From positions 1 to 47,160 of the forward strand of contig DATJXQ010000080.1 of NCBI GenBank assembly GCA_035500015.1: a DNA stretch of 47,160 nt. The letters are read 5' to 3'. Source of the stretch: Steroidobacteraceae bacterium. GTDB taxonomy: Bacteria > Pseudomonadota > Gammaproteobacteria > Steroidobacterales > Steroidobacteraceae. This document shows, piece after piece, positions 19,940-43,193 of this stretch. The position numbers and the translations under genes were made by a program. The notes beneath the pieces were generated by a model. It searched no databases, was not told where the DNA came from, and saw nothing but the letters and a program-made list of their open reading frames with translations. The first letter of the stretch is position 1; the number at the start of each line of letters is the position of its first letter.

Positions 19940-19970
19940 GGGGCAAGCCTACTACATCGCGGCGGCGGGA

Positions 19971-20828: not shown

Positions 20829-20839
20829 GGTCGGCAATG

Positions 20840-21745: not shown

Positions 21746-21886
21746 GCAAAGCCCTTATTACGGAGCCGGGAATCAGTTGGAGAGACCATGCTACACCGGC
21801 GTCGTGCGGCGGTTGCCGCTACATGGCAGGGACTTTGCGAGTCAGCCGCTGAACCCGTACTGAACTCGCGGCGCCGCGGATCCCGC

Positions 21887-22771: not shown

Positions 22772-22773
22772 GG

Positions 22774-23406: not shown

Positions 23407-23416
23407 GTCAGTGCAA

Positions 23417-24061
23417 CTACCTCTCGTCCAGCTCGTCAGCCACCCAGCCATGCTTCGCCAGATGCACGCCCACGCGCAGCTGCATCGTGCCCTCGCCTTC
23501 GAGCGCGCGCGCCAGCGCCGGGAAGGCATGCAGCACCGCGGGAGTTTTCGCCCACGCCACCGGCGTGATGCGGTAAGTGAACAGCAGCGAGGTTGTGTTG
23601 CGGCCGTCGCGCGGTTGCGGCGGATCCCAGCCGACGAGGCGATCCAGCTGCAGCGTCGCCACGCAGAAATCGCCCGGGTGCGTGACCTTCTGCGCCGCCG
23701 TGCGGATCACGACGGGCACGTGCAGGTAGTACTTGCGTCCTTCCGCGGTCAGCGAGTATTCGCGTGCCGCGACCGTCACGGCGATGGCGCCGGCGCCCTT
23801 GCGGACGATTTGGGTGTCGCGCCCGGCGGCAAGGCCGAGCTTCTCGAGCACGGGCATCTGCCGCGCGTCCGGGTCGCGCGCGTCGCCCGCCACGGTGACC
23901 GGCCAGTCATACCTGGCGAGGCATACGTGGCCGCGCTGCGCGAGAAAATCCTGCAGCGCCGCCGTGAAATTCGCGCGGTTCGCCAGCCGCACCTGCCCGC
24001 CTTCGCAGCCGGTGAACGTGCCCGCGAGCAACAGCAGGGCGGCGATGGAGGATCGTCGCAT
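23417..24061 (-). CDS. uncharacterised lipoprotein, paralog 2 of a tandem pair
   Basis: ATG (complement of 24059-24061), 2 nt after the CCP stop (the track start at 24067 is TTG). Lipobox FTGC. Same motif skeleton as 22774..23406. Confidence 0.75.
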   Translation of the reverse strand: MRRSSIAALLLLAGTFTGCEGGQVRLANRANFTAALQDFLAQRGHVCLARYDWPVTVAGDARDPDARQMPVLEKLGLAAGRDTQIVRKGAGAIAVTVAAREYSLTAEGRKYYLHVPVVIRTAAQKVTHPGDFCVATLQLDRLVGWDPPQPRDGRNTTSLLFTYRITPVAWAKTPAVLHAFPALARALEGEGTMQLRVGVHLAKHGWVADELDER

Positions 24062-24063
24062 CG

Positions 24064-25464
24064 TCAATCCACGCAGGTGCCGCCCGCCGGCGGCGTATCG
24101 GGCACCTGGTAGCCATCGCTCAGTGTGTCGAGGAAGCAGATCAGGTCGCCGATCTGCTGCTCGGTCATGGCCGGCATCGAGCCGGCGGCGCGTGGCGCGG
24201 TGCCGCCGCCGAGCGTGTTGTCGCCGCCGTCGCCGGTGCCAAGCGGCACTTCTTCATCCACGCTGCCCTGCTCCCCGGCCGGCAGGTCGTTGAACTTCGC
24301 CACCGTCGCGCCCGGAACGTAGGCCGGCTGCAGCGCCCAGCCCGGATTCTCCAGCGGCGCGCCGGCGCCACCGCTGGCCGGATACCAGTACTCCGGATTG
24401 GTGTCGCGCGTGTTGTAGAAGTGCAGGACCTGGCTCAGCGAATGGAACACGCCATTGTGGAAGAACGCGCCGCGCGTGGCGACATTGCGCAGCACCGGCA
24501 CCTTGAACTGGCCGCAGTATGGATCCGGCGTGCCGAGCTGTGCCGGCGTGTGGTCGGTGCGCTGCGGACCGCACAGGCCCATGTCGTAGTACGCCGGATC
24601 GTCGTTGGCCGGAATGGGATCGGGGTTGCCCGGAATGGAACGGTCGTTGCGCGGCGCGCCGAGGGCCTGGTACGTGAAGTCCGTCATCAGGCCCTGGTTG
24701 CCGGCGAAGTTGACGCCGGTGTAGTGGCAGGCCGAGCAGTTGCCGGTGGCGCTGCTGTGGAACACCAGCTGGCCACGCAGTTCCGCCGCCGTCAGCGTGC
24801 CGCCGATCTTGTTGTAGATGTACAGGTCGTACTTGCTGCTGTAGGGATGGAAGCTGAGGTCCTCGTTCTCGAAGGCCTGGATCGCCAGGCCGATGTCGTC
24901 GAAGGCGGTGTCCGTGTCGTCGAGCGCGCCGGTGCCGAAGGCCTGCAGGAACAGATCGGCGTACTTGCCGTTGCGCACGGCCTGCACCACGTCCGCCTTC
25001 GAGGCATTGTTCATCTCGACCGGATTGAGCAGCGGCAGCGCCACCTGCGCCGCCATGGTCGGCGCGCGACCATCCCACATGAACCCGCCGCCGGGAGAAG
25101 CCAGCGTCACGCCGTCGGGATTGGCGGCGTTGTCGTCGTAGGGCGGAGTCGATTCGCGGTAGCGCAGCGAGGGCACGGCACGCATGCCGGCCTGCGCGGG
25201 ATCGGAACCGAGTTGCACTGCCAGGCTGTTGGGCGGTCCGTAGGCGTATTGCGGATCGTGGCAACTCGAACAGGACATGTTCCTGCCACCCGACAGGTTC
25301 CTGTCGAAGAATGCCTTCTGTCCAACCTGTGCCTTGAGGCTCAGCGTCGGCGCGGTACTGCCGGCGGTGCCGGCGCCCGCGCTGTCAGCGGCCGTACCGC
25401 TGTCGCAGGCCGCCAGTGCCAGCAGCAGCACGGCGAACACGCCCATCGGGAACTGCCTGGCCAT
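24064..25464 (-). CDS. di-haem cytochrome c peroxidase / MauG-family lipoprotein
   Basis: 466 aa. Lipobox LALAAC. Two haem c motifs (CSSCH, CSACH). FKVPVLRNVATRGAFFHNGVFHSLSQVLHFY and C-terminal LICFLDTL are typical of the CCP_MauG family. Confidence 0.9.
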   Translation of the reverse strand: MARQFPMGVFAVLLLALAACDSGTAADSAGAGTAGSTAPTLSLKAQVGQKAFFDRNLSGGRNMSCSSCHDPQYAYGPPNSLAVQLGSDPAQAGMRAVPSLRYRESTPPYDDNAANPDGVTLASPGGGFMWDGRAPTMAAQVALPLLNPVEMNNASKADVVQAVRNGKYADLFLQAFGTGALDDTDTAFDDIGLAIQAFENEDLSFHPYSSKYDLYIYNKIGGTLTAAELRGQLVFHSSATGNCSACHYTGVNFAGNQGLMTDFTYQALGAPRNDRSIPGNPDPIPANDDPAYYDMGLCGPQRTDHTPAQLGTPDPYCGQFKVPVLRNVATRGAFFHNGVFHSLSQVLHFYNTRDTNPEYWYPASGGAGAPLENPGWALQPAYVPGATVAKFNDLPAGEQGSVDEEVPLGTGDGGDNTLGGGTAPRAAGSMPAMTEQQIGDLICFLDTLSDGYQVPDTPPAGGTCVD

Positions 25465-25484
25465 CGCGCAACCCTGAAAGACGC

Positions 25485-25517
25485 GGCGCGCGGGTGGTGA
25501 ACCACCATCCGCGCGCC
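25485..25517 (-). terminator. long GC hairpin downstream of the phosphoesterase gene
   Basis: GGCGCGCGGGTGGT-gaa-CCACCATCCGCGCGCC (one bulge), located between the phosphoesterase stop (25536) and the CCP start (25464). No U-tract. Confidence 0.45.
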
Positions 25518-25535
25518 TGACGCGACGCCTTCCGA

Positions 25536-27986
25536 TTACTTCACCGCCCAGACATTGTCCTGGCTGGCATCGGGGCCGACCTGCGGCGTGATGACACCCT
25601 CCAGCGTGCCCGTCAGCGTGTCCTGCACGCCGACGATGTCACCCGGATACAGCTTCTGGTGGTAGGTGGACGGGATCACGTAGGCGTGGTTGATCGGACG
25701 CACCGAGTCGAAGTGCGTATCCGCGCTGCTCGCGAACTCCGGCAGCGCCAGGATGTTGGCTGCGATGAACGCCTCGGTGTACTTCGCGCGGTTCAGATAC
25801 GAGGCGTCGACGGCCGGGTCGGCGAGCTGGAACATGTCCTGCAGCGTGCGCACCAGCGAGAAGTGGCTGTAGGCATCGCTGTCCTTGATGCCCTTCTTCG
25901 CCGTGCCGAGGTCCTGCTGGTTGGTGATGATGCCGAAGATCGAGTTGCCGTGACCGAAGTTGCCCTGCGCGTAGTTGGTCGGCGCGGTGCCGGCCGTGGC
26001 CACGCCATGCGCATCCACCGTCACCGGTTTGGTGCCGGAGTTCGTGCCGCCGGCATTCCAGCCGCAGCAGGAGCCGTTGCTGCCGCCTTCACCCTCGTCG
26101 AACATCACGACGATGGCAACGCGCTTCTGCTTGTTCTTCCACAGCGCCGAGGCCTTGATCTTGTCGATGACCTTGCTGAGGTAGATGTCGGCGCGGGTGA
26201 CGCCGACGTTCTGGCCGTTGTTGCTGCTGGAACCGCCGAGGGCGCAGGATTCACCATCCGTCCCGGCCGTGCCGACGCCGTGCATGTCGTCGCACTGGTC
26301 GGGCACGACGAAGTTGATGTTGCCCACGTCTCCCATGGCAAGGTCGGTGCCGAACTGGTCATAGATCCACTTCGACGCATCGAAGGAGGGATACGCCGTC
26401 TGCCTCTTCCAGTCCGCTTCCGTGTACTGCATGCCGAAGATGGTGCGGTTGTCCGCATAGAACTCCGGCAGGTTGCGCGCGGTCTGGAAATCGATCGACG
26501 GACCGTGCTTGACGCGGTAGAGCTGCGCTCTCACCGGCCACGCCTGGGTATCGGACAAGGTGATGCCCTCGCTGCTGGTGGCGCTGAACTTGTCGGAAAC
26601 CGCCGGGTCGGCAATGCTGTCGGCGCGCGGATCCTGCCCCGGGTTCATCGACTCGCTGTAGGTGCGGATCGTCATGCCCGCCCTGGAGACCAGCGTGAAC
26701 AGGTTGTCGCCCGGAATATTGTGGACATTGCCGCCCGTCGGCGCATCGCCGCAGGTGGCGCTGGCCGCGCTGTAGCCGGCACGGTGCCCGCTGTCGGCCG
26801 GCGGCAATGCGGCGAACGCGGGTAGCGGCTGGCCGTCCGAGGCCGTGCCGCCCGCGAAGGCGACGTCCTGCAGTGCATAAGGGCCGCTCGGCACGACACC
26901 GCAACCGTACCAGTTGTCGTCGGTGACGCCGAAATCGTCGCCGCCGCCGATCGCACTGTAGTTCGGTTCGGACGGATTGCCGGTCGAATAGTACGTCGTC
27001 AGCGAGCCGTAGGTGTTGAGGATGCCGTTGATGGTGGGCGCACGCAGGTTGCCGACGATCACGTCCGTCGACTTGTTCTCTTCCATGATGATGAAGATGC
27101 TGTCGAAGGCCGGCACGCCCTCGACATTGAACGCCGCCTGCTGCGACTGCGCGAAAGTGATCGGCGCCTGTGTCTCCAGCGGCGTGACGATGGTCGCGGC
27201 GGTGACGCCGGACTTGCCGACCAGGCGCGGATCGCCACCCTTGACGGCGAGATTATCCGGGTAGAGATCGTGGCGATCGAGCTTGGTCGTGGCGTAGGTG
27301 TAGCGATTGGTCAGCGCGTTGTCCGCATACAGCACCGCGTACTGTTCCGAGCCCGTCAGCGTGTTGACGTCCGCCAGCGCATCCGCGCCGCTGACCGTGA
27401 CGGTGCCGAGATTGAAGGCGGGACCGGACAGATACGTGGCGAGATTGGCCTTCTCGGTGGCGTAGTCGGTGCCGTTGGCCTCGACACGGCGCTGCACTTC
27501 GCTCGAGGTCGGGCTGATGACCACACCCGCTGTCTGGTCGGCGAACTGCGCCGCCGAAGCCCGCAGGATCAGGTGGCTGGGGACGGTCGCGGCGGTGGCG
27601 GTGTTGGTGGCCGAAGTGCCGATGTCGGCGACCAGCTGCGCCGGAGAGGCCAGCGTGAAATCGCTCGCCACGGTCAGCGAGAACTTGCCGTTGGCATCGG
27701 TGGTGCCCGAGACCTCGGTGGAATCCAGAATGCCATTGCCGTTGGCGTCGATGAACACGGTGGCGCCGGAGTAGTAGCCCGCCTTCAGCGTCGGATCGCC
27801 CGTGGTACTGCCCGCCACGAAGCCGGAAGCCGCAACCACGCCCGCAAGGGTCTTCGTCGTGGGCGCCGGCGGGCTGTCGTCACTGCTGTTGCAGGCGACC
27901 AGCGTGGAGATGGCCGCGATGCATGCCGCTTCGGCGGTGACTCGCGAGGACTTGCGGAGAATTTCCGCGACGGCTGCTTGGATCAT
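25536..27986 (-). CDS. large lipoprotein with C-terminal phosphoesterase (phospholipase C / acid phosphatase, PF04185-like) domain
   Basis: ATG (complement of 27984-27986) after AAGGAAAC. Lipobox TLVAC. About 300-aa N-terminal region including IDANGNGILD. Catalytic part starts FDSIFIIMEENKSTD... The upstream 220 codons of ORF 25536..28646 overlap the permease gene and are rejected. Confidence 0.8.
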   Translation of the reverse strand: MIQAAVAEILRKSSRVTAEAACIAAISTLVACNSSDDSPPAPTTKTLAGVVAASGFVAGSTTGDPTLKAGYYSGATVFIDANGNGILDSTEVSGTTDANGKFSLTVASDFTLASPAQLVADIGTSATNTATAATVPSHLILRASAAQFADQTAGVVISPTSSEVQRRVEANGTDYATEKANLATYLSGPAFNLGTVTVSGADALADVNTLTGSEQYAVLYADNALTNRYTYATTKLDRHDLYPDNLAVKGGDPRLVGKSGVTAATIVTPLETQAPITFAQSQQAAFNVEGVPAFDSIFIIMEENKSTDVIVGNLRAPTINGILNTYGSLTTYYSTGNPSEPNYSAIGGGDDFGVTDDNWYGCGVVPSGPYALQDVAFAGGTASDGQPLPAFAALPPADSGHRAGYSAASATCGDAPTGGNVHNIPGDNLFTLVSRAGMTIRTYSESMNPGQDPRADSIADPAVSDKFSATSSEGITLSDTQAWPVRAQLYRVKHGPSIDFQTARNLPEFYADNRTIFGMQYTEADWKRQTAYPSFDASKWIYDQFGTDLAMGDVGNINFVVPDQCDDMHGVGTAGTDGESCALGGSSSNNGQNVGVTRADIYLSKVIDKIKASALWKNKQKRVAIVVMFDEGEGGSNGSCCGWNAGGTNSGTKPVTVDAHGVATAGTAPTNYAQGNFGHGNSIFGIITNQQDLGTAKKGIKDSDAYSHFSLVRTLQDMFQLADPAVDASYLNRAKYTEAFIAANILALPEFASSADTHFDSVRPINHAYVIPSTYHQKLYPGDIVGVQDTLTGTLEGVITPQVGPDASQDNVWAVK

Positions 27987-28076
27987 GGTTTCCTTGTATT
28001 CGTCTCTGGTCCGGGTTCGGGACGCGCCCGCACGAAGTGCGGCTGTAGCGCGAGGACGAGAGACTAGAAACCACGC

Positions 28077-28106
28077 ATGACATTCGCGTTTCCTTTTCTT
28101 GACAGT
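28077..28106 (-). promoter_or_regulatory. possible Pho-box-like element upstream of the phosphoesterase gene
   Basis: The minus strand reads CTGTCAAGAAA-AGGAAACGCGA-ATGTCAT. There are two TGTCA half-sites exactly 22 nt (2 x 11) apart with a degenerate middle repeat, about 90-120 nt upstream of the ATG. Confidence 0.3.
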
Positions 28107-28117
28107 TTCGAAAGCCG

Positions 28118-28894
28118 TTACCGCGCTGCCGGCGCCGGAGCACGCAGCGCGGGCAGCAGTTGCACCAACAGCGCGCACGCCGCCAGCGTCCACACGATCA
28201 TCGCGCCGCTGGGCAGGTCGAACACGGCCGACAGCACCAGGCCGGATAGATAGCCGGCGATGCCAACCGAATACGCGGCGACGAGCTGCCGCTTGCCCGC
28301 CAGGCCCGAAGTCGCCAGCGCCGGCACGATGAGGCTGGCAAATACCAGATACACGCCAACGAGTTGCACCGATACCGTGATGGCCAACGCGAACAACGCA
28401 TAGAACAGCACGCCGGCGAGGCGCCCACCGCGCAGCCACATGATGGCCAGCAGCACCAGCGAGATCAGCGCCGCCGGAACCAGTTGCCGGTAACTGACCC
28501 ACAGGATCTGCCCGACCAGCAGATCCTTCAGGTGCTCGCCGCCCTGCGGATTGTTGGCCAGCAGCAGCAGGCCGCCGGTGGCCGCCAGCACGAACAGCGT
28601 GCCGATGAAGGGCTCCTGCATTTTCGGCCAGCGACGGTCGGTCCACGCCAGCAGCGCGGCGCCGGCCAGCGCGGCGACGGCCGCGGCGATCTGCACGCCT
28701 ATGCCATGTTCGGGAACGCCGAGGAACTGCGCGGCAATCACACCCATCGCCGCGATCTGCGCGATGGCCAGATCAATGAAGATGATGCCGCGCGAGAGCA
28801 CCTGCCGCCCCAGCGGCACGTGCGTGGCGAGCACGATCACGCCGGCCACCATGGCGGGGCCGAGGATGCTGATGTCCAGTCCTTCCAGCGTCAT
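28118..28894 (-). CDS. metal ABC transporter permease (ABC-3 / ZnuB-like)
   Basis: 258 aa, polytopic. GIIFIDLAIAQIAAMG and VGVYLVFASLIVPALA patterns fit ABC-3 family permeases. ATGA overlap with the SBP gene. Confidence 0.88.
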   Translation of the reverse strand: MTLEGLDISILGPAMVAGVIVLATHVPLGRQVLSRGIIFIDLAIAQIAAMGVIAAQFLGVPEHGIGVQIAAAVAALAGAALLAWTDRRWPKMQEPFIGTLFVLAATGGLLLLANNPQGGEHLKDLLVGQILWVSYRQLVPAALISLVLLAIMWLRGGRLAGVLFYALFALAITVSVQLVGVYLVFASLIVPALATSGLAGKRQLVAAYSVGIAGYLSGLVLSAVFDLPSGAMIVWTLAACALLVQLLPALRAPAPAAR

Positions 28895-29790
28895 TTCTTC
28901 GCGACTCCCAGCAGCTTGTCGATGGTCGAGTCGAACAGGCCGAACAGGTCCTTCGACTGCGCATCACCACCCACGGTGTACGGCAGCACCACCACCGGCA
29001 CGCCGGTGCGCTCCGACAGCCACTGCGCGGGCTTGGGATCCTGGTACGCCGCGCTGATGATGGCGTACACGCCCTGCTCCTTCGCGGTGCTGATCAGGCT
29101 CGAAAGATGCGCGCTGGTTGGCGGCACGCCGGGTTTGGGCTCCAGCGCGCCGACCTCCTGCATGCCCAGCCACTGCTCCAGGTAGATCCAGCTGACGTGA
29201 TGCACGATGACCTTCCTGCCCTTCAGCGGTGCGGCCCTGGCCTCCCAGCGCTTGATGGCGGCCTGCCAGCGCGTGGTGAAGTCGGCCAGCCGCTGCTGGT
29301 AGGTCGCCGCGTTGGCGGCATCCAGCTCCGCCAGCCGCGCGGCCAATCCATCGGCGATCTTCAGCACGCGGTAAGGGTCGAGCTGGAAGTGCGGGTTGCC
29401 TTCCGGATGCACGTCACCGGCGGCGCGATCCACCTGGCTGGGCTTTTCCAGCGTGGTGATCTGGCTCGCGGCCATGAAATAACCCGGGCCATCGGCCACC
29501 GCATGATTGCCGGATTGCTGGATCAGCTGCGGCAGCCAGCCCACTTCCAGCTCCGCGCCGGTGCACACCAGCAGGTTGGCCTTGCGCACGCGCGCGATCA
29601 GGCTGGGCTTGGCGTCGATCTGGTGCACGTCCTGCATGGCCGTGGTGCCCACGCTGACGTCGACCTTGTCGCCGGCCAGCTCCTGCACCAGCGAGCCCCA
29701 CTCCGGCTCGCAGGCGAACACCTGCAGTTTCGCGCAGGCCGGCAATGCGAACAGGCCCAGCAGCAATGCGGAAAGTATCTTCTTCATCAT
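28891..29790 (-). CDS. metal ABC transporter substrate-binding protein (cluster A-I, ZnuA/TroA-like)
   Basis: ATG ATG at 29785-29790. Signal peptide MMKKILSALLLGLFALPACA. Metal-ligand blocks MQDVHQIDAKPS, DVHPEGNPHFQLDP, VIVHHVSWIYL. No long His-rich loop. Confidence 0.85.
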   Translation of the reverse strand: MMKKILSALLLGLFALPACAKLQVFACEPEWGSLVQELAGDKVDVSVGTTAMQDVHQIDAKPSLIARVRKANLLVCTGAELEVGWLPQLIQQSGNHAVADGPGYFMAASQITTLEKPSQVDRAAGDVHPEGNPHFQLDPYRVLKIADGLAARLAELDAANAATYQQRLADFTTRWQAAIKRWEARAAPLKGRKVIVHHVSWIYLEQWLGMQEVGALEPKPGVPPTSAHLSSLISTAKEQGVYAIISAAYQDPKPAQWLSERTGVPVVVLPYTVGGDAQSKDLFGLFDSTIDKLLGVAKK

Positions 29791-29803: not shown

Positions 29804-30967
29804 TCAGAACTTGTGCGCGCCATGCGCGCCGATGGTGGTCTGTATCTGCAGCGACACCGCGTTGTCGGTGGCCGTGGCGCTGGGGTGGTCGCGGCTGAGC
29901 TGCAGGCGCACCAGGCTGAACTCGCTGTTGAGCCAGGTGAGCACCAGGCTGTGGCGGTAGGGATCGAAGCCGCTGGCAAAGGGAGCACCTTGCGGCGCCC
30001 AGATCTGGTCGTAGCGGTAGCCGGTTTCCCACTGGCGGTTGATGCGATACACGGTTTCCGCATACCAGCCGCGGCGCTTGCCGCTCCAGGCCTCCTCCGG
30101 CAGCACTTCATCCGGATCGGCGAAGGTGCCGTTGCGGTCGTCGATGAAGTATTCGCTGCGCACCAGGAAGCCGCCGTCCTTGGTGTTGCCGCCCGGCGCC
30201 CACTTCCAGGTGAGGTCGGCGATGTACAGCTTGTTGATGCCGGAGAAGCCGTCGTCCGCGCCGGCGGTCTTCGAGTGCAGCATCGAAACACCGGCCAGCC
30301 AGGAATTCTCCACGCCCAGGTCGCCGCCCACGTGCGCGAACAGCGTGTCCACGCCCACGCCGGAATGCTGCGCGCCGGCGCTGGGGAAGCTCACACCGCG
30401 AAAGGCTTCGCCGCCCAGTTCGATGAACAGGTCGGTAGGAGGCACCCAGCGCAGTTGCACGCCGTCATCGCCGTACTGGTTGCCGAGGAAGGCCTGGTAG
30501 GGCAGCGGCCGGTCGGAGAACTTGTCCGTGTGCGGATGGTGGCTGTTCAGGTAGCCGATGTTTGAGTAGAAACGTCCGGCACGCAGCGTGAGACCATCCG
30601 GCAGTGCGGTGGTGTCGACGAAGGCTTCCTCGATGCCAAAGTTGTCGTGGCCGTCCTCGTTCTCCACCGTCATGGTGAGCTGCGCGAAGAACTTCTCGTC
30701 CACGTTGGCGGCCAGCGCCAGCTCGCTCTCGCCGATCGACAGGCCCTGCGGCAGCGGCCCGGCCTCGCCGCCCAGCGGGAAACCATCGCGCGAGTAATCG
30801 CTCGGGCTGAGCGAATGATGTGTATAGAAGCCATTGAGGATGACGCTCATGGCGGGGTTGAAGGCATTGGCATTGGCGCCGGTGGCGGGCGCCCCTGAAT
30901 CTTCGGCGGCGAAAGTCCGCGCGCTGGCGGCTGCCAGCAGGCAAACAGCAAGAGAAACTCGTTTCAT
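29804..30967 (-). CDS. outer-membrane beta-barrel (porin-like) protein co-transcribed with the metal ABC genes
   Basis: 387 aa. Signal peptide MKRVSLAVCLLAAASARTFA. Beta-strand periodicity, His-rich patches (LNSHHPHTDKF). C-terminal ...TTIGAHGAHKF ends in Phe. Confidence 0.8.
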   Translation of the reverse strand: MKRVSLAVCLLAAASARTFAAEDSGAPATGANANAFNPAMSVILNGFYTHHSLSPSDYSRDGFPLGGEAGPLPQGLSIGESELALAANVDEKFFAQLTMTVENEDGHDNFGIEEAFVDTTALPDGLTLRAGRFYSNIGYLNSHHPHTDKFSDRPLPYQAFLGNQYGDDGVQLRWVPPTDLFIELGGEAFRGVSFPSAGAQHSGVGVDTLFAHVGGDLGVENSWLAGVSMLHSKTAGADDGFSGINKLYIADLTWKWAPGGNTKDGGFLVRSEYFIDDRNGTFADPDEVLPEEAWSGKRRGWYAETVYRINRQWETGYRYDQIWAPQGAPFASGFDPYRHSLVLTWLNSEFSLVRLQLSRDHPSATATDNAVSLQIQTTIGAHGAHKF

Positions 30968-31079
30968 GATTGTTCCCGGTCGGATCGCGTGGGGCGCGTA
31001 GGCGCCGGCCGGAGCAGGCTCCGGCGCGGTCCATCAGCGGCCATTGAGACGGGCGACCACGGCGGGTCGCCCGGAAGCA

Positions 31080-31448
31080 TCACGCGATCGGCGGGCGGAG
31101 GAGCCTCGCGATGCGTTGCACAGGAGCCGGCAACCGGATCGACGGGGGATTCAGCACGGAATCGAACTGCACCGCCGGAACCGCCACGACCGCGGCGGTA
31201 TCGGCATAAACGCCGCCATCGTCGCTGTGCAGCAGGCCGTGGGCGCCGCGGGCGTGTTCCGCGTCCAGCTGGCGTTCCAGCGGGGAATCCGGCCGGAACT
31301 TCTCATGCGCCAGCGCGGCCAGCTCGTGGCCCAGCTGGTGGGTTTCGCACCAGGTGGAATAGGCCGGCCTGACGAGCACCGAAAGCAGCAGCACGCCCAC
31401 GAGCACGATTCGCGGCAGCAGCGGCAGGTGCCTGGCAGGACGGATCAC
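31080..31448 (-). CDS. small His-rich protein with N-terminal hydrophobic anchor, copy A
   Basis: 122 aa, GTG start. Core YSTWCETHQLGHELAALAHEKFRPDSPLERQLDAEHARGAHGLLHSDDGGVYA is identical to copy B. Most nucleotide differences between the copies are synonymous in this frame. Confidence 0.7.
   Translation of the reverse strand: MIRPARHLPLLPRIVLVGVLLLSVLVRPAYSTWCETHQLGHELAALAHEKFRPDSPLERQLDAEHARGAHGLLHSDDGGVYADTAAVVAVPAVQFDSVLNPPSIRLPAPVQRIARLLRPPIA
31181..31361. repeat. direct repeat, copy A (core of the duplicated small gene)
   Basis: Aligns without gaps to 33913-34093. By hand count there are 11 mismatches in 181 nt, including a 71-nt perfect run (tgttccgcgtccagctggcgttccagcggggaatccggccggaacttctcatgcgccagcgcggccagctc). 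Confidence 0.9.
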
Positions 31449-31477
31449 TGCCGTACTTTACGATCCGCGCGCCGCCG

Positions 31478-31541
31478 GCGCCAGCCACCGGGCAGGTGGC
31501 TGGCGCGGCATGCATGGCCCGCGGCCCCGGCGCCGCGGGCC
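31478..31541 (-). terminator. two GC hairpins downstream of the TonB-dependent receptor gene
   Basis: GCGCCAGCCACC-gggca-GGTGGCTGGCGC (31478-31506) and GGCCCGCGGC-N6-GCCGCGGGCC (31516-31541), just after the receptor stop at 31549. No U-tract. Confidence 0.4.
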
Positions 31542-31548
31542 GGAGGCG

Positions 31549-33546
31549 TCAATCCAGCGCCGCGCGGATCATCAGGCGGATATCGCGGCCGGGCATGAGC
31601 ACCTCATCCTTGTTCAGCGCCACGGCATCGCGCTGCGCGCTGTTGGTCAGGTTGCGGCCGATCAGCGCGAATTCCACGCCGGAGTGCCGCGCCCAGGGGC
31701 GCACCGCCAGCTGCGCGCCGACATCGGTGTAACCGCCGGTCTCGGTCTCGGCGGTGGCCAGCTTGTCCTGCCGGCCCGCGTATTTCACGGTGACCGAGGC
31801 ATCCACGCGCGGTCCCTGCCAGCTCAGCCCGCCACCCACGTGGTAGGGCGGAATGCGTGGCACATTGCCGGCGCCGCCGGCGAGCTTTGCGCGCACGGTG
31901 TCGGCCAGCAGGTCCAGGTGCAGGTGCGCCGAACCCTGCTGCAGCAGTTCGAACTGCGCGTGGCCTTCGGCGCCGCGGAATCTCGCGTCCTGCTGGCGGT
32001 AGAACAGCTCCTTCAGCTCCTCATCGCCGCCGAAGGAGCAGCTGCCGTCATCGTCGCAATGCCGGCCGGTGAGCGCACCGTAGATGAAGTTGCTGAAGTT
32101 GGTGGCCCACACCGAGCCGTCGGCATGCACGCGTTCACCGCGAAAGCGCAGCGTGGCTTCCAGCGAGTTGGCGCGCTCCAGGCCCAGCGTGGCATCGCCG
32201 GTCTCGTAGGTGGCGGGGCCATCATGCGGGCCGTGCGCGAACAGCTCGGTCTGCGCCGGCGCGCGCGCCGCCGAGGTCAGTGCCAGGCCGGCGCGCCAGG
32301 TATCGGTCAGGTCATACACCAGACCGGCCGAACCGCTGAGCGGCGTGAAGCTGCGCGACACGGCCACGTCCTCACCTGTGGTGCCGTCGACCTGCACGTT
32401 CTCCACGCGCGCGCCGAACTGCAGCCGCAGCGCCTTGGCCAGCGGCGCCTCGGCGAAGCCGAACACCGCGCGGTTCTTCGTGGTGGTGGGCAGCAGGTAA
32501 TCCTCGCCCTCGCCCAGCGCCGAGAAATCGCGCTGCTGCAGCTCCATGCCCAGCGAGGTCGCGGAGAACACGCCCCAGTCGCCGCCCACCGCCTCGGCGC
32601 GCGAATCCCATTCGCGATCCTTGAAGGTGGAATCGACCTCGCCGCTGTCGTTCTCGATCTCGCTGTGCTTGTAGTTCGCCCAGCCGCCGTCGACGGTGAG
32701 TTTCTGCCACGGACCGGCAGCCAGCTGCCAGCCGGAACGCAGCCCCAGCCTGGTCTGCTGCATGTCGATGAACGTGGTGTCGCTGGGGATGCCGTAGCGC
32801 GAATCATGCTGTTCCACGTCCAGCCCCAGGTTGTTGTCGCCGTCGATCCACGCCCCGCCGAGCGCACCGCCATGCGCGTGCAGCCAGGAATTGTCCTGGG
32901 TGCCGTCCGGCGTATCGTAGTCGCCGGAGTGACGGTCGAAGGCGTCGGCATGCAACGCGAACCCGCCCTGCCGCAGGTTGTATTGCCCGGCGAAATCGCG
33001 GCTGTCGGCAACGCTGCCGAACTCGGCGACCACCTCGCCGCTGGAGGTGCCGTCCGGAAGGTGCGTGGGCACGCGGTCGCTGATGGCGTTGACCACGCCG
33101 CCGATGGCCTGGCTGCCATAGCGCAGCGTGGCCGCGCCACGCACCACTTCCACGCGCTCGGCGGTGAAGGGATCGATGGGCACGCCATGGTCCGGCCCGA
33201 CGTCGGATACGTCGAAGCTGCCGACGCCGTCCTCCAGCACGCGCACGCGGTTGGCGTCCATGCCGCGGATCACCGGCCGGCCGGCGCCGGCCGCAAAGCC
33301 GCTGCTGGTCACGCCGGGCACCTGGTCGAGCGCGTCGGCCAGGGTGTTGCCGCCGGAGCGAAGCAGCTGGTCGCGATTGACGCTGCCGGCGATGGTCGCC
33401 AGGTGATCCGGATCGCCGATGGGCGAGGCGGTCACCACGACTTCCTCGAGCTGGGAGGCATCCGTGGCCTGTTGCGCATGAACCGGGGAATGAAATGAAA
33501 CGACGGCCAGCGCCAATGCGGCGCCGGCGAGATGGATCCTGGACAT
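31549..33546 (-). CDS. TonB-dependent receptor (ZnuD/HemR-like small receptor class, metal uptake)
   Basis: 665 aa. Signal peptide; plug motifs EEVVVTASP, DALDQVPGVTSSG, PVIRGMDANRVRVLEDG, RVEVVRGAATLRYGSQAIGGVVN. His-rich predicted loops (NSWLHAHGG, ELFAHGPHDG). Confidence 0.88.
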   Translation of the reverse strand: MSRIHLAGAALALAVVSFHSPVHAQQATDASQLEEVVVTASPIGDPDHLATIAGSVNRDQLLRSGGNTLADALDQVPGVTSSGFAAGAGRPVIRGMDANRVRVLEDGVGSFDVSDVGPDHGVPIDPFTAERVEVVRGAATLRYGSQAIGGVVNAISDRVPTHLPDGTSSGEVVAEFGSVADSRDFAGQYNLRQGGFALHADAFDRHSGDYDTPDGTQDNSWLHAHGGALGGAWIDGDNNLGLDVEQHDSRYGIPSDTTFIDMQQTRLGLRSGWQLAAGPWQKLTVDGGWANYKHSEIENDSGEVDSTFKDREWDSRAEAVGGDWGVFSATSLGMELQQRDFSALGEGEDYLLPTTTKNRAVFGFAEAPLAKALRLQFGARVENVQVDGTTGEDVAVSRSFTPLSGSAGLVYDLTDTWRAGLALTSAARAPAQTELFAHGPHDGPATYETGDATLGLERANSLEATLRFRGERVHADGSVWATNFSNFIYGALTGRHCDDDGSCSFGGDEELKELFYRQQDARFRGAEGHAQFELLQQGSAHLHLDLLADTVRAKLAGGAGNVPRIPPYHVGGGLSWQGPRVDASVTVKYAGRQDKLATAETETGGYTDVGAQLAVRPWARHSGVEFALIGRNLTNSAQRDAVALNKDEVLMPGRDIRLMIRAALD

Positions 33547-33811
33547 CTGTCACCTCGAAAAATGTATGCGTGATCGCTGCGCAGGCCGTCGCCGGCCGCG
33601 CAGGGCTGCTGCAGTCAAGGAAAAGGCCGGCCCTGCCGCTTCAACGCCGACGGCGGATCGCATGCAACCGGAGCCCGCGCTCCAGGCAGCAGGAGGTCCG
33701 CTGACGACCACGCGCAGGACGGTTGCGCAAGCAGCCGCCATCGCGGCGACACGCGGTCGCCGGTCAAACGTGGTCGGAATCGGCCGGCGCGGCGCGCCAA
33801 CCCGGGATGCC

Positions 33812-34180
33812 TCAGGCGATCGGAGGCCGCAGCAACCTGCCGATGCGCTGCACGGGAGCCGGCAGCACGATGGCAAGGGGATTCAGCACGGATTCGACGT
33901 GGACGGCCGGTGCCGCCACGACCGCGGCGGTGCCCGCATAGACGCCGCCATCGTCACTGTGCAGCAGGCCATGGGCGCCGCGCGCATGTTCCGCGTCCAG
34001 CTGGCGTTCCAGCGGGGAATCCGGCCGGAACTTCTCATGCGCCAGCGCGGCCAGCTCATGGCCGAGCTGGTGGGTTTCGCACCAGGTGGAATACATCGGC
34101 CTGCCCAGCACCGAAAACATCGTCATCGCCAGCAGCGTGACGCGCAGCGCGAATGGCAGCCTCTGGATCGGGTTGAACAC
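33812..34180 (-). CDS. small His-rich protein with N-terminal hydrophobic anchor, copy B
   Basis: 122 aa, GTG start (ATG alternatives 19-21 codons in). Same 53-aa core as copy A. Located 18 nt downstream of the MFS gene stop and upstream of the TonB-dependent receptor. Confidence 0.7.
   Translation of the reverse strand: MFNPIQRLPFALRVTLLAMTMFSVLGRPMYSTWCETHQLGHELAALAHEKFRPDSPLERQLDAEHARGAHGLLHSDDGGVYAGTAAVVAAPAVHVESVLNPLAIVLPAPVQRIGRLLRPPIA
33913..34093. repeat. direct repeat, copy B
   Basis: See copy A. Same orientation, 2732 nt apart, bracketing the TonB-dependent receptor gene. Confidence 0.9.
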
Positions 34181-34198
34181 AGCAGTAATGTAAATGTC

Positions 34199-35431
34199 TC
34201 AGGTCGGCCGATGCAATGGCAGGCGGCGCGCCGGCGCCAGCGCCAGCAATGCGCCGCCGGCCGCGAGCAGCAGTGCGCACGCCAGCGTGAGGCGCGTCGC
34301 AACCTGCCCCCACAGCACGCTGCCCGCGGCCAGGCAGCCATAGAACACGGCGGTGTACAGCGCCATGCCGCGCGCGCGGATGAAATCCGGCACGGCCAGC
34401 TGCGCCGCCACGTTCAGCGAGGACAGTGCCGCGAGCCACGACGCGCCCGCGACCAGGCTGGCGAGCATGCCCAGCCACTGCACGCGCAGCAGCGCATAGC
34501 CGGCCAGCGCCAGCGCCGTGCCGACGGTGCCGGCGATCAAGGTGCCGTCGAGGCCGAAGCGCTGGCGCAGTCGCGGCAATGCCAGCGCGCCCGCCACCGC
34601 GCCGGTACCGATGCAGCCGACGAGGACGCCGTACAGGCGCGCGTCTCCGGCCAGCTGCTGTCGCGCCACCAGCGGCAGCAATGCCCAGTAGGCGCTGGCG
34701 AAAATGTAGAACGCCACCGCGCGCAGCAGCGTGTTGCGCAACGACCGGTTGGCAGCCGCATGCCGCACGCCGGCGAGCATCGAGGCGATGAGGCTCTCCT
34801 GCGTCACGGCGCGCGGCGCCACCGCCGCCGGCCGCCAGTGCCACAGCGCGACGATGATGGCGACGAACGACACCGCATTGAGGAAGAACGGCCACGCAAT
34901 GCCCAGCACCACGATCAGCAGGCCGCCGATGGCCGGGCCGATCGCACGTGCCAGGTTCATGCCCACGGCATGCAGCGCCACGGCCGGCGGCAGGTTCGCG
35001 CGCGGCACCAGCTGCGGCAGGATGGCCTGCCAGGTCGGCGAGCTGATCGCCGTGCCCACGCCCAGCCCGAAGGTGATCGCCAGCAGCGCGGCCGTGTTCG
35101 CCGCGCCGGCGAGAACCAGCACGCCGAGCAGCGCCGCGAGCAGCAGCATGCAGGCCTGCACCAGCATCAGCAGCCGCCGCCGGTCGCAGCGATCGGCCAG
35201 CGCGCCGGCCGGCAGCGCCAGCAGGAACACCGGCAAGGTGGTGGCGGCCTGCACCAGCGCCACCATCAGCGGCGTCGGCGCCAGCGTGGTCATCAGCCAG
35301 CCGGCCGCGACGTCGTGCATCCAGCTGCCGGTGTTGGACAGCAGCGCCGCGCTCCACAGCAGCGCGAAATCCGGGTAACGGAACGGGCTCCATGCGCCGG
35401 CCGGCGTGGCGCCGCCCTGATGTGTGCTCAC
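34199..35431 (-). CDS. MFS transporter (EntS/MFS_3-like exporter family)
   Basis: GTG at codon 37 of ORF 34199..35539 is preferred, because it avoids overlap with the upstream gene. Sequence: FRYPDFALLWSAALLSNTGSWMHDVAAGWLM..., 12-TM pattern. Confidence 0.8.
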   Translation of the reverse strand: MSTHQGGATPAGAWSPFRYPDFALLWSAALLSNTGSWMHDVAAGWLMTTLAPTPLMVALVQAATTLPVFLLALPAGALADRCDRRRLLMLVQACMLLLAALLGVLVLAGAANTAALLAITFGLGVGTAISSPTWQAILPQLVPRANLPPAVALHAVGMNLARAIGPAIGGLLIVVLGIAWPFFLNAVSFVAIIVALWHWRPAAVAPRAVTQESLIASMLAGVRHAAANRSLRNTLLRAVAFYIFASAYWALLPLVARQQLAGDARLYGVLVGCIGTGAVAGALALPRLRQRFGLDGTLIAGTVGTALALAGYALLRVQWLGMLASLVAGASWLAALSSLNVAAQLAVPDFIRARGMALYTAVFYGCLAAGSVLWGQVATRLTLACALLLAAGGALLALAPARRLPLHRPT

Positions 35432-35462
35432 GTGGATGGCGGCGCGGCGGACCGCGAGGGCA

Positions 35463-36155
35463 TCAGCCCGGCTTCTGGAACAGGAAGATGAGCTGGTCGG
35501 TCTTGTCGTGCATGTCGCGGCTGGGACGCGTGTGGTCATCGTCCGCGTGCTTCAGCACATCGCTCTGCTGCACCAGCTTGAAGCCCACGGAGGTGACTTC
35601 CTTGCGCACCAGGTCCGGATCGATCCGGTGCAGCGTGGAGGTATCGCGCGCGCCCGAGCCTTTTTCCGCGGCGTGGTCGATCACCATGTACAGGCCGCCA
35701 GGCTTCAAGGCGTTCCACACCATCTTGTTGATGGCGGCGAGATCCGCGTTGGGCCGGTTGTGCAGGTCGTGGTAGTTCAGCGAGGTCCACACCAGGTCCA
35801 CCGCGTCGGGCAGCGGCGTGGATGCATCCATGTTGGCCAGCTTGATGTTCGGGTAGTCCGGATCGGCCGCCAGCGCGCGAATTGGCGTGGACATGTCGCG
35901 GCCACCGGGCGGCGCGTTCGGAGCCGGCAACGGCAGCCAGGCATACAGCACGCCCCTCGGCCCGATGATCTTGCTGAAGATGCGCGTGAAGTAGCCCTGG
36001 CCGGGCAGCATCTCGGCCACCTTCTCGCCCGCATGCAGGCCCGTCAGCGCGATGCATTCGGCCGGCTTGCGATCGGCATCGCGCATGCGATCGGCCTCGG
36101 GGCGCGCCGGATCGGCGACCGCGTCGGCAATGGCCTGGGAAGCTGGAGCCGCCAT
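35463..36155 (-). CDS. class I SAM-dependent methyltransferase (COG4798-like)
   Basis: ATG (complement of 36153-36155) after GAGGGGG. Motifs GEKVAEMLPGQGYFT, LKPGGLYMVIDH, TSTLHRID. Confidence 0.8.
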   Translation of the reverse strand: MAAPASQAIADAVADPARPEADRMRDADRKPAECIALTGLHAGEKVAEMLPGQGYFTRIFSKIIGPRGVLYAWLPLPAPNAPPGGRDMSTPIRALAADPDYPNIKLANMDASTPLPDAVDLVWTSLNYHDLHNRPNADLAAINKMVWNALKPGGLYMVIDHAAEKGSGARDTSTLHRIDPDLVRKEVTSVGFKLVQQSDVLKHADDDHTRPSRDMHDKTDQLIFLFQKPG

Positions 36156-36242: not shown

Positions 36243-36590
36243 TCAGGGCAGTTCGTCGCGCAGGCAGGCCAGCACCCGGGCCGGAACCAGTGTCTCCGGT
36301 ACCACCGCCGTCTGGGTGCCCTCACCCATGCGGCGTGTCAGCCGGATGCGGAATCGGTCGGCACCGCCAGCCGCGCCTTTTTCCGGCAGGCGGAACAGGC
36401 TTTCGACGATTGCCCGCTCTTCCTGGGACAGCAACGAAGTATCGCAATGCCCGCGGCTGCTGATCCGCGCCGCACCGATGCCGAAACCCGCGAGGCCTCC
36501 CAGGCGTTCCACTTCCACGATGGCGCCGGCGTGCGTCACGGAGGTGGAATCACCCTGCGCATCACAGGCCGACAGCCTTCCAGGCCGCAT
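36243..36590 (-). CDS. emfourin-like small protein (putative protealysin inhibitor)
   Basis: 115 aa. Starts 29 nt inside the protease 3' end. VEVERLGGLAGFG...GGADRFRIRLTR resembles the emfourin family as I recall it. The position immediately downstream of a protealysin-like gene matches the described operon. Confidence 0.6.
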   Translation of the reverse strand: MRPGRLSACDAQGDSTSVTHAGAIVEVERLGGLAGFGIGAARISSRGHCDTSLLSQEERAIVESLFRLPEKGAAGGADRFRIRLTRRMGEGTQTAVVPETLVPARVLACLRDELP

Positions 36591-37605
36591 CGATCGCTGC
36601 CCTCACGGCGGGCTCGGCCGGATAGAGGCTGGTGGCCGCGGCGCGGGTGCGGTTCGCAAAGGTCTTCATCCTCATGCGCGGCGCCGGCTTCTGCGCCGTC
36701 AATGCCTGGAACCAGATGCGGCCCGCCACGCTCCAGCTGTTGCCGCCGAGCGCCAGCGCCGCCTTGCAGAAGGCGAGGTTCGGAATGCCGCTGCTTTCAT
36801 GCGGATCCATGCCATCACGATACCGGGAGAAATGCGCCGGCTGCGGCGACAGGCAGTGCTCCGCGGCGGGATCGGCCATGTCGCGCAGGCACTCGTAGCC
36901 GCGGGCGCGCGCCACCGGGCCCATGATGTCGCTGCCGATCAGCCAGTCCGCCTGCACCACCGTCTGGCCCTTGCGCCACTGGCGGAACATCGAGCCGAAC
37001 ACGTCCGAGATGCTTTCGTTCAGGCCGCCGGCCTCGTCCTCGTAGCCAAGGCCCGCGGTGAACTGCGTGAGACCGTGCGTCAGCTCGTGCGCGATCACGT
37101 CGGTGGCGCTGGTGAAATCCCTGAAGATGGCGCCGTCGCCATCGCCGTAGGTCATCTGGCTGCCGTTCCAGAAGGCATTGTTGTACTGCACGCTGTAGTG
37201 CACCGAGGACAGCAGCGCCATGCCGTTGCCATCCAGCGAGTTGCGGCCGAACACCGTCCGGAAGAAGCGCACCACCTCGGTGGTCTCGGTGAAGGCATGC
37301 GCGGGTGCCTCATCGTGCGATGCGGCGGGATCATGTACCGGAGCACCCGGCAGCACCGTGCCGTGACGGCAGTCGAACACCAGCACGTGGGGCGGCGCGG
37401 CGGCAGCTGCGCCCAGATCCGCGGGCAGCACCTCGGCAGCCAGCCGCGCCAGCCGCGATTTCACCTGGCGCGCGTGGCGCCATTCCTTCTCCAGCCGCGC
37501 GGCGGCGGCGAACGCCCGGCGCTGGGATGCCTTGAGCCTGCGATCCCGCGCAAAGCGCAGCAGCACCTTCGTCGGAACGATGAAACAGCAGCCACAATGA
37601 TTCAT
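36562..37605 (-). CDS. protealysin-like M4 (thermolysin-family) metallopeptidase, no signal peptide
   Basis: 347 aa. Zinc motif VIAHELTHGL plus GGLNESISDVFG. Short N-terminal propeptide beginning MNHCGCCFIVPTKVLL, as in protealysin-like proteases. Confidence 0.88.
   Translation of the reverse strand: MNHCGCCFIVPTKVLLRFARDRRLKASQRRAFAAAARLEKEWRHARQVKSRLARLAAEVLPADLGAAAAAPPHVLVFDCRHGTVLPGAPVHDPAASHDEAPAHAFTETTEVVRFFRTVFGRNSLDGNGMALLSSVHYSVQYNNAFWNGSQMTYGDGDGAIFRDFTSATDVIAHELTHGLTQFTAGLGYEDEAGGLNESISDVFGSMFRQWRKGQTVVQADWLIGSDIMGPVARARGYECLRDMADPAAEHCLSPQPAHFSRYRDGMDPHESSGIPNLAFCKAALALGGNSWSVAGRIWFQALTAQKPAPRMRMKTFANRTRAAATSLYPAEPAVRAAIDAAWKAVGL

Positions 37606-43117: not shown

Positions 43118-43193
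<76 letters not shown>

Follow-up and report, generated by a model that had tools for sequence, protein, structure and literature searches.

Sensing of a metal by an exported peptide during its own synthesis has so far been worked out for copper only, and for two proteins, CruR and CutF. The first of these (Bp2923), from Bordetella pertussis, is encoded by a DUF2946 upstream open reading frame (ORF) controlling the TonB-dependent transporter BfrG; it has an export signal and two motifs set 45 residues apart, CXXC and, three residues before the stop, RAPP (PMC9426467). Its translation and RAPP are needed for expression of the downstream transporter, five residues added to the spacing strongly weakened copper control, and copper binding via CXXC was proposed to relieve the arrest, letting Rho terminate in the 162-nucleotide (nt) spacer (PMC9426467). 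In Rhodobacter capsulatus CutF, copper binding by the exported nascent chain prolongs the pause at a C-terminal Pro motif (10.1101/2022.11.11.516240 / PMC9973294; 10.1101/2025.02.05.636593). The two proteins respond oppositely to copper, and stalling has been hard to demonstrate for either. CutF-like proteins include some with His-only clusters, encoded next to HupE/UreJ genes, and CzcI was placed in the same assemblage (10.1101/2022.11.11.516240); in Cupriavidus metallidurans, CzcI is described as a periplasmic protein damping CzcCBA activity, and the czcI2 mRNA is reported to be leaderless (PMC10127602). The present analysis concerns two small His-rich ORFs, copies A and B, each preceding an outer-membrane channel gene, known or presumed, in 47,160 nt of a Steroidobacteraceae bacterium (contig DATJXQ010000080.1, assembly GCA_035500015.1; this whole stretch is called the window). 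Sequence comparison indicates that each of them is probably a cis-acting regulatory leader gene of the CruR/CutF kind and not a stable accessory of import. No description of a zinc-linked or import-linked His-rich member of the DUF2946 assemblage was found in the literature.

Copy B (33812..34180, minus strand) and its paralog copy A (31080..31448, minus strand) both have 122 codons and a GTG start, and copy B runs from an export signal through a His/Asp/Glu/Cys cluster and a 43-residue spacer to L-R-P-P-I-A-stop. The original prediction had described these two ORFs, made from the sequence alone, as sharing an identical core of 53 amino acids (aa), and this was found again: residues 30-82, with six His and one Cys, are the same in both copies. 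In a gap-free alignment of the two, 299 of 369 nt are identical, and the likeness is lost outside the ORF borders, where the flanks have about 20-40% identity. For the DNA cores (31181-31361 vs. 33913-34093), the reported perfect run of 71 nt was recovered, while the recount gave 10 mismatches in 181 nt instead of 11. Similarly, eight differences and not nine are synonymous, all of them within core codons 30-82, where non-synonymous changes number zero; the other two do fall in one D/G codon, as reported, namely codon 83 (D83/G83). The GC content by codon position in both ORFs (GC1 0.73-0.78, GC2 0.47, GC3 0.83) is coding-like and matches that of the surrounding genes, which, with the synonymous-only core differences, agrees with the earlier suggestion of a translated frame under purifying selection. 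Between the window and its orthologs, the core shows 15-20 synonymous vs. 4-5 non-synonymous codon differences.

A search of 5.8 billion proteins yielded 46 clusters of close homologs, 94-145 aa in length and mostly of about 120 aa, all of them from metagenomes or metagenome-assembled genomes. The gene is present in four of 185,579 species-representative genomes, one labelled Steroidobacteraceae and the rest uncultured Gammaproteobacteria, Pseudomonadota or proteobacteria. That the ORFs might be spurious was ruled out by the coding signal, the synonymous-only core differences and these 46 conserved homologs. Twenty-three alignment columns are invariant: P28, S31, C34, E35, H37, H41, D54, E58, L61, D62, H65, A66, G68, H70, H74, G78, Y81, P91, P107, R118, P119, P120 and I121. 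The single invariant Cys is part of C-E-x-H-x3-H, and H70-x3-H74 stands where relatives show H-C-C-G; neither the CXXC motif of CruR nor the CxxxC motif of CutF is conserved in the window family. The N-terminus, with basic Arg-rich residues and 14-15 hydrophobic residues followed by RPxYS/TW (the slash marks the putative cut), is a predicted Sec-type export signal, and distant relatives have a textbook cleavage site, PVMA/A.

The C-terminal third had been described as diverged, which holds overall but not for its last residues, R-P-P-I, whose family-wide invariance had been missed. The terminal motif is [FL]-R-P-P-I, a di-proline but not RAPP, and about 150 sequences with otherwise some 30% identity all retain R-P-P-I. 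Pro-Pro (residues 119-120 of 122) is followed by exactly two residues in 32 out of 32 close sequences, and between the last HxxxH and RPP lie 43-44 residues in 31 of these 32 and 43-45 in 53 of 68 distant members. The codons for R118-P119-P120-I121-A122, directly before the stop, form a putative ribosome-arrest motif at 33815..33829 (minus) in copy B and at 31083..31097 (minus) in copy A. Compared with the CutF-like working definition of Ozturk et al. (2023), the window genes fall within it, having 122 aa, an export-type N-terminus, PP near the end and spacers of 112 and 265 nt to the next gene, after copies A and B, respectively. AlphaFold run with the family alignment gave a mean predicted local distance difference test (pLDDT) score of 60, with one long helix at the N-terminus, a second, short one and low confidence in the C-terminal half; the small proteins are thus predicted to be largely disordered.

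At the mRNA level, in the RNAalifold consensus for eight loci, the Pro-Pro-Ile codons are base-paired with the Shine-Dalgarno region of the next gene, the barrel gene after copy A or its counterpart. In the window, the 5' arm of this helix (31081..31095, minus; CCCG..GAUCGCGUG) consists of the Pro-Pro-Ile-Ala codons and two stop-codon bases, and the 3' arm (30975..30991, minus; CACGCGAUC..CGGG) covers the 5' part of the barrel Shine-Dalgarno sequence, GGGAA at 30973-30977, the ATG being at 30965-30967. The window minimum-energy fold includes the helix. Across the loci, 92.9% of its cells are paired and three of seven pairs have changed on both sides, with compensatory changes in L003 (CCAAUCG/CGAUUGG, where the Pro codon is CCA and its partner went from C to U) and in L008 (GAUA/UAUC, where the Ile codon is AUA and its partner went from G to U). 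Taken together, three helices have 86.6% of cells paired vs. 77.7% in shuffles, none of 500 of which reached the observed value, and slid partners gave 45% at most. The arrest/Shine-Dalgarno duplexes average -18.0 kcal/mol for cognate vs. -14.2 kcal/mol for non-cognate pairs, with no permutation out of 20,000 as good. The same design recurs in the czc-linked relatives (see below), which have a 55-57-nt spacer: CCUCCG (Pro-Pro) pairs with the Shine-Dalgarno CGGAG of the czcC-like gene, and the codons after Pro-Pro, together with the stop, form the next tier of one long stem.

Upstream, each small ORF is preceded by a -10-like element (TAnAnT), TACATTA-N5-GTG at 34178..34192 (minus), ending 6 nt before the copy B GTG, and TAAAGTA-N5-GTG at 31446..31460 (minus) before copy A, with TGGCGC-N17 upstream of the latter. 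The copy B element straddles the 3' end of the preceding transporter gene and the short gap after it. In all 15 family copies examined, TA[C/A/G]A[G/T]T lies 5-6 nt before the GTG, and most copies have TGGCG 16-17 nt further upstream. The pattern TANAKTANNNNNGTG occurs twice in the window, both times at the start of one of the ORFs, against zero expected by chance; as it was derived from these very sequences, the independent evidence is its conservation in other loci. A sigma-70 consensus scan of 30800-34400 gave no promoter, the -10-like elements being below threshold, and an intrinsic terminator scan of the same interval gave nothing relevant. The placing of the element suggests a transcription start at or next to the GTG, so that each small ORF would have its own, possibly leaderless, transcript. 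As for the czc-linked relatives in L018 (6941-7000) and L019 (6941-7000), they are preceded by a conserved element that may be an operator, CACAGTG-N3-ATTGTGTAAC, and that differs from the TAnAnT-N5-GTG of the window family.

Past the stop codon, a GC-rich hairpin follows within 3-12 nt in 15 out of 15 copies. Its sequence is not conserved, and the post-stop hairpins exceed in stability both random windows (p = 3e-4) and the regions that follow other stops (p = 4e-3); they are not canonical terminators, since no T-run follows. In copy A, the hairpin (31050..31073, minus) has a 9-bp stem and starts 6 nt after the stop, and two further hairpins (31009-31024 and 30993-31006, minus) lie inside the loop closed by the long-range helix. 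In copy B, it lies directly after the stop (33776..33811, minus; core stem 33786-33798), at the head of the 265-nt GC-rich intergenic region that leads to the receptor gene (33547..33811, minus) and that has a conserved UUCCGACCAC...GACCGGCGA block and a last hairpin at 33577-33603. The latter is also present in L009, L006 and L001, with the stem CUGCGCG/CGCGCAG (GUGCGCA/UGCGCAC in L001); hairpins of this type are located 25-30 nt upstream of the receptor Shine-Dalgarno sequence and are followed by a conserved CAUCA(G/C)GCAU block. The 3' ends of both ORFs show a modest excess of C over G, which hints at a Rho loading site but is also explained by the Pro codons.

Concerning the wider family, Pfam and NCBIfam scans of both proteins gave a chance-level GspM match alone, and a PDB sequence search with the family profile gave no match. 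A family-profile search of 1.84 billion representatives retrieved 103 proteins at E <= 0.001, most of them near full-length and of about 100-165 aa, nearly all of which end in PF[RK]PPI. The 68 aligned relatives share with the close family the export signal, [C/G/S]-[D/E]-x-H-x3-H, a variable His-rich stretch, G-x-H-G-L-x-H and the PF[RK]PPI end, and, in a scan of these 68, Pfam DUF2946 is matched by 14 at E <= 0.1. A second set came from cultured Lysobacterales, among other sources; of these relatives, P0178 reaches 25.1 bits vs. the PF11162 gathering score of 23.7, six others have 15-22 bits over nearly the entire model, and two are named 'DUF2946 domain-containing' in UniRef. Relatives P0204, P0167 and P0213 are encoded directly upstream of OEP - CzcB - ACR_tran operons (czcCBA-like Zn/Co/Cd efflux), whereas the window copies precede import-type genes and no such operon. 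A position straight before such targets is also what has been published for cruR and cutF-like genes. The original prediction had been unable to place the proteins in a characterised family; the profile searches now place them, remotely and indirectly, as a putative divergent His-rich, single-Cys branch of the CutF/CruR/CzcI-like DUF2946 assemblage.

Two related loci hold further small genes of this type. In L001 (10559-10867, plus strand), a 102-aa ORF between the His-rich gene and the receptor gene starts with a signal-like segment, has CLLC and RGPP with 46 residues between them, and ends two residues after RGPP; it gave no Pfam match at E <= 0.1 and has no counterpart in the window, and the receptor-proximal hairpin lies 19 nt after its stop. 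Two different metal-sensing leader genes thus appear to be stacked before one receptor gene, and since this ORF has the classic CruR layout, leader genes of that kind would be in use at the receptor-upstream position. In L008 (6403-8416, plus strand), about 3.5 kb upstream of the family member, a second module of small protein and outer-membrane gene comprises a 124-aa DUF2946-like protein (21.7 bits; HHLHHH...CPFGS...RAPPRLT), a 326-aa Phenol_MetA_deg-like barrel and a TlpA/AhpC-type thiol-disulfide oxidoreductase.

The near-identity of the two cores was compared with the double module on contig L009. The window cores differ from each other at 8 of 159 nt and from the orthologous cores of L009 at 24-28 of 159 nt, the two paralogous cores of L009 being 24/159 nt apart. 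For the N-terminal 29 codons, the window B and L009 B copies differ at 13 of 87 nt and the window A and B copies at 36 of 87. N-terminal segments therefore cluster by position, that is, by orthology, and cores by genome, which implies that the core was homogenised in the window lineage after its split from L009. The comparison supports the gene conversion that had previously been suspected. Conversion is not universal, since the paralogous cores of L001 are strongly diverged (36/159 nt).

The synteny was assessed by mapping the window proteins onto every related locus fetched, L009 and L010 being apparently the same sequence. In every related locus with enough sequence, the next gene after the small gene, on the same strand, is a TonB-dependent receptor or barrel gene, so that the recurring module of small His-rich protein and outer-membrane gene proposed earlier is conserved throughout. 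The order small - barrel - ZnuA - ABC-3 (- LigB - GTP cyclohydrolase II) is found in L003, L008, L011, L012 and L013, the order small - receptor - LigB - cyclohydrolase in L006, and a double module like that of the window in L001 and L009/L010. In the window, the presumed target of copy B is a 665-aa TonB-dependent receptor (31549..33546, minus) with Plug and TonB_dep_Rec domains; in line with the ZnuD/HemR-like label given earlier, its best NCBIfam match is ZnuD, though far below the cut-off (259 bits vs. 950). The gene order given earlier for copy A is also correct: it is followed by the gene of a 387-aa secreted protein ending in Phe (29804..30967, minus), its presumed target, then by those of a ZnuA-family binding protein (28891-29790, minus) and an ABC-3 permease (28118-28894, minus). 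For the 387-aa protein, of an uncharacterised family, no significant family match (BBP2, E 0.034) and no match in the PDB sequence search were obtained, and a single-sequence structure model was uninformative (pLDDT 30), so that its being an outer-membrane beta-barrel is presumed from the signal peptide, the C-terminal Phe and the context. An MFS_3 (EntS-like) transporter gene (34199..35539, minus) ends 18 nt before copy B; it is a frequent but not constant upstream neighbour, missing in L011 and L012.

The neighbours suggest that the metal is zinc, given the ZnuD-like receptor, the ZnuA/AztC-like protein, the ABC-3 permease, the second GTP cyclohydrolase II and the czc-type pumps of the relatives. 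Neither the window nor any related locus has an ABC ATPase gene adjacent to the ZnuA-like and ABC-3 genes; L003 and L009 have the only ABC_tran gene nearby, which is of the ABC-F type and on the opposite strand. LigB and GTP cyclohydrolase II genes directly follow the permease gene in L003 and L009, whereas in the window about 7 kb (20838-28117) lie between, encoding a lipoprotein phosphoesterase (25536-27932), a di-haem cytochrome c peroxidase (24064-25464), a 2OG-Fe(II) oxygenase (21887-22771) and two proteins with no family matches. Peroxidase and phosphoesterase genes also follow the permease gene in L001, in a different orientation. Beyond this stretch (18791-20837, minus), the conserved cluster continues with a LigB-type dioxygenase and a protein of 382 aa, whose GTP cyclohydrolase II domain is C-terminal and whose N-terminal half, about 185 aa, has no assignment; the latter protein might serve as a metal-sparing paralog, or else belong to a small-molecule pathway connected with the MFS exporter and the receptor. 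On the other side, a thermolysin-type M4 peptidase gene (36562-37605, minus) is followed by a 115-aa ORF (36243-36590), and the L009 gene at the position of this ORF weakly matches the M4 protease inhibitor family Emfourin, below the threshold (E 3.5e-4). The AT-rich operator-like islands sought upstream of the cluster yielded nothing convincing. In an Rfam scan, the sole match in the window was a transfer RNA gene (43121-43193, minus), with none in the two spacers.

As a whole, these observations can be joined into the following scheme. Each small ORF would be transcribed from its own promoter-like element, whose closeness to the GTG may make the mRNA leaderless, and the export signal would thread the chain out of the cytoplasm during synthesis. 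The exported Cys/His/Asp/Glu cluster (C34, E35, H37, H41, H48, D54, E58, D62, H65, H70, H74, D76 and D77) would then bind a divalent metal. With a spacer of 43-44 residues, the whole sensor would be just outside the ribosome tunnel and the translocon when the ribosome is at the Pro-Pro codons, and could sample periplasmic metal. The ribosome would pause on Arg-Pro-Pro, the metal occupancy of the sensor setting the length of the pause. In module A, the paused ribosome would cover the Pro-Pro-Ile-Ala-stop codons and free the barrel ribosome-binding site about 100 nt downstream, switching on the barrel gene and, probably, those of the ZnuA-like protein and the permease as well; once it terminates and leaves, the helix would re-form. 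For module B, the output might be a weaker form of such pairing, or else regulated termination within the structured spacer of 265 nt; a Rho-type switch as in cruR-bfrG is a guess here, backed by the modest C-over-G excess at the 3' end of the ORF. Since the targets are import-like, and since for CruR and CutF alike stalling goes with expression of the downstream gene, metal binding would be expected to shorten the pause, as proposed for CruR, possibly through a pull exerted by metal-induced folding of the nascent chain. The czc-linked relatives head efflux pumps and would need the opposite metal response; judging from the CruR/CutF pair, both directions can occur within one family.

Several results weigh against this scheme or parts of it. 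Stalling at R-P-P-I is putative, and the motif lies outside the set (R/Q/H)-(A/G/D)-(P/G/S)-(P/G) that was tested for arrest (PMC10987492). The sensor region is conserved over its whole length and could be a folded mature domain with a job of its own. In the window copy A, the simple 7-bp helix has two mismatches, and pairing is achieved via a shifted 9-bp helix plus 4 bp; moreover, Pro codons are C-rich and Shine-Dalgarno sequences G-rich, so that part of the complementarity comes free by composition. Pure coincidence is made less likely by the compensatory changes and by the comparison of cognate with non-cognate pairs, both of which rest on eight related loci. Whole-spacer folding energies cannot be distinguished from those of shuffled sequence (z = -0.35 and -1.49). 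For copy B, the arrest/Shine-Dalgarno complementarity is not above background, the duplex being weaker than 86-95% of control windows, and the sole pairing is a 5-bp GCCUC/GAGGU, with no covariation among three sequences. As to zinc, no Zur box (TGTTATNNNATAACA, up to three mismatches) was found in the window, and the family scores of the zinc-type neighbours are far under the equivalog cut-offs. Regarding descent, the window proteins do not match PF11162 at E <= 0.1, and hhalign against 26 PF11162-annotated proteins, which represent one DUF2946 subfamily, gave the close family a probability of 0.1% and the wider family one of 1.6%; as this profile-profile comparison is not significant, homology to DUF2946 rests on intermediates that are short, low-complexity proteins.

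How far these points favour another explanation was considered for three cases. It is conceivable, albeit unlikely, that the mature exported His-rich peptide of about 90 residues acts in trans in the periplasm, on the outer-membrane channel or the ZnuA-like protein, as a relay, buffer, gate or damper. A dense, fully conserved ligand cluster behind an export signal, the strict purifying selection on the sensor core and the constant pairing with an outer-membrane gene would all fit such a role; relatives adjoin the outer-membrane factor of czc-type pumps, and the description of CzcI as a periplasmic pump modulator (PMC10127602) again speaks for trans action and against the leader-gene reading. 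But a trans role leaves RPPIA-stop, the 43-44-residue spacing, the covarying helix and the post-stop hairpin without explanation, the C-terminal half is predicted to be disordered, one family serving importers and exporters of unrelated architecture is hard to fit with a specific protein partner, and CruR and CutF are undetectable or rapidly degraded after export (PMC9426467; 10.1101/2022.11.11.516240). The earlier suggestion of an accessory factor for metal import, as metal relay, chaperone, sensor or plug, therefore survives in its sensor form, probably as a nascent chain acting in cis; the relay, chaperone and plug forms are not supported as worded. Sensing in cis is favoured because of RPPIA-stop, the fixed spacing, the disorder prediction, the efflux-heading relatives and the helix between stall codons and Shine-Dalgarno sequence. 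By analogy with CzcI as a precedent, a periplasmic role in trans could possibly coexist with cis-regulation.

The ORFs might also be ordinary duplicated hypothetical genes, with an incidental motif and complementarity, hairpins that are terminators or stabilisers, and a near-identity due to recent gene conversion. The unexceptional intergenic folding energies, the lack of specific complementarity in copy B, an identical core that gene conversion alone can explain and the scans showing no canonical promoter or terminator point this way; against it stand the invariance of R-P-P-I over some 150 sequences at about 30% identity, double compensatory changes in two independent loci with cognate pairs stabler than non-cognate ones, the same pairing design in the czc-linked relatives and the conserved TAnAnT-N5-GTG element, which make this explanation improbable. 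Still harder to believe is that the ORFs are precursors of a ribosomal metallophore, exported by the MFS pump and re-imported by the TonB-dependent receptor. The neighbours can indeed be read as a set for export and re-import, made up of an MFS_3 (EntS-like) exporter, a TonB-dependent receptor, a binding protein and a permease, but no maturation enzyme of a known peptide-modification type is encoded alongside, a Sec-type signal is already present in the protein, L011 and L012 lack the MFS gene, relatives head efflux pumps, and the conserved C-terminus is stall-like and not that of a core peptide.

The leader-gene reading can be made more specific, and is then put forward tentatively, as something rather less probable than its general form. 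In this version, the locus would encode a nascent-peptide sensor of a divalent metal, probably zinc, whose stall codons are themselves the anti-Shine-Dalgarno strand, translated from leaderless mRNA, in the form of tandem paralogs kept alike by conversion and gating two outer-membrane import channels, through unmasking of the ribosome-binding site for barrel and ZnuA-like genes and through a termination-type switch for the receptor gene. If true, this would be without precedent, both as control of zinc import by an arrest peptide and as an R-P-P-I motif that works in arrest. The family would widen the principle established for copper to a His/Asp/Glu-rich, single-Cys ligand set, to outer-membrane import targets and to a zinc-type context, and its RNA mechanism, in which stall codons and anti-Shine-Dalgarno strand coincide, is explicit and testable. 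Import- and efflux-linked relatives would offer a natural pair for finding how metal lengthens or shortens the pause. As regards annotation, 'hypothetical small His-rich proteins' beside transporters may be regulatory leader genes and not transport accessories.

Among the described systems, those of the SecM-secA type resemble the window modules in having an exported leader, a C-terminal Arg/Pro arrest motif and a stalled ribosome that opens a helix masking a Shine-Dalgarno sequence, but they sense export activity and not metal, and their motifs are RAGP, RAPP or RGPP, with stalling at the third residue (PMC10987492). CzcI and CzcI2 are small exported His/Cys proteins encoded directly upstream of Zn/Co/Cd czcCBA genes, the very position held by the distant relatives of the family, and the czcI2 mRNA, reported as leaderless, has its parallel in the -10-like elements abutting the GTG of the window genes. 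They are set apart, by description, in being reported as pump dampers with no C-terminal Pro motif, whereas the window proteins keep RPPIA and precede import genes.

With CutF, the window family shares a spacing of about 45 residues between ligands and Pro motif and, as proposed for module A, a pause at Pro codons that melts a stem hiding the ribosome-binding site of the next gene. A length of about 45 residues roughly spans the ribosome tunnel plus the translocon. CutF differs in sensing copper through CxxxC and switching on a detoxifying oxidase, vs. outer-membrane import channels with a ZnuA-type system here; in its stem, the 5' arm of which would in the window be the stall codons themselves; and in having a short local stem-loop vs. 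a loop of about 100-160 nt with further hairpins. The shortening of the pause by metal, as proposed here, has a likeness in an engineered force sensor, an artificial construct, for which Nilsson et al. are said to have found in 2015 that Zn-dependent folding of ADR1a releases SecM arrest; there too, metal-induced folding of a nascent domain at a set distance from an arrest motif releases the stall.

The differences from CruR are as follows: CXXC and copper are replaced by C-E-x-H-x3-H with further His/Asp/Glu residues, one Cys and a zinc-suggesting context, RAPP by R-P-P-I-A, and Rho-dependent termination, in module A, by a putative Shine-Dalgarno-sequestering helix; there is also no significant direct sequence or profile match. 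The likeness is one of layout. In both cases, a small exported protein, poorly structured by prediction, is encoded at the head of the unit, and the gene of a TonB-dependent receptor follows next, after a long GC-rich spacer (162 nt for CruR vs. 265 nt for copy B); the ligand motif lies about 45 residues before Arg...Pro-Pro, itself two to three residues from the stop, and the target is an importer, which the metal should switch off.

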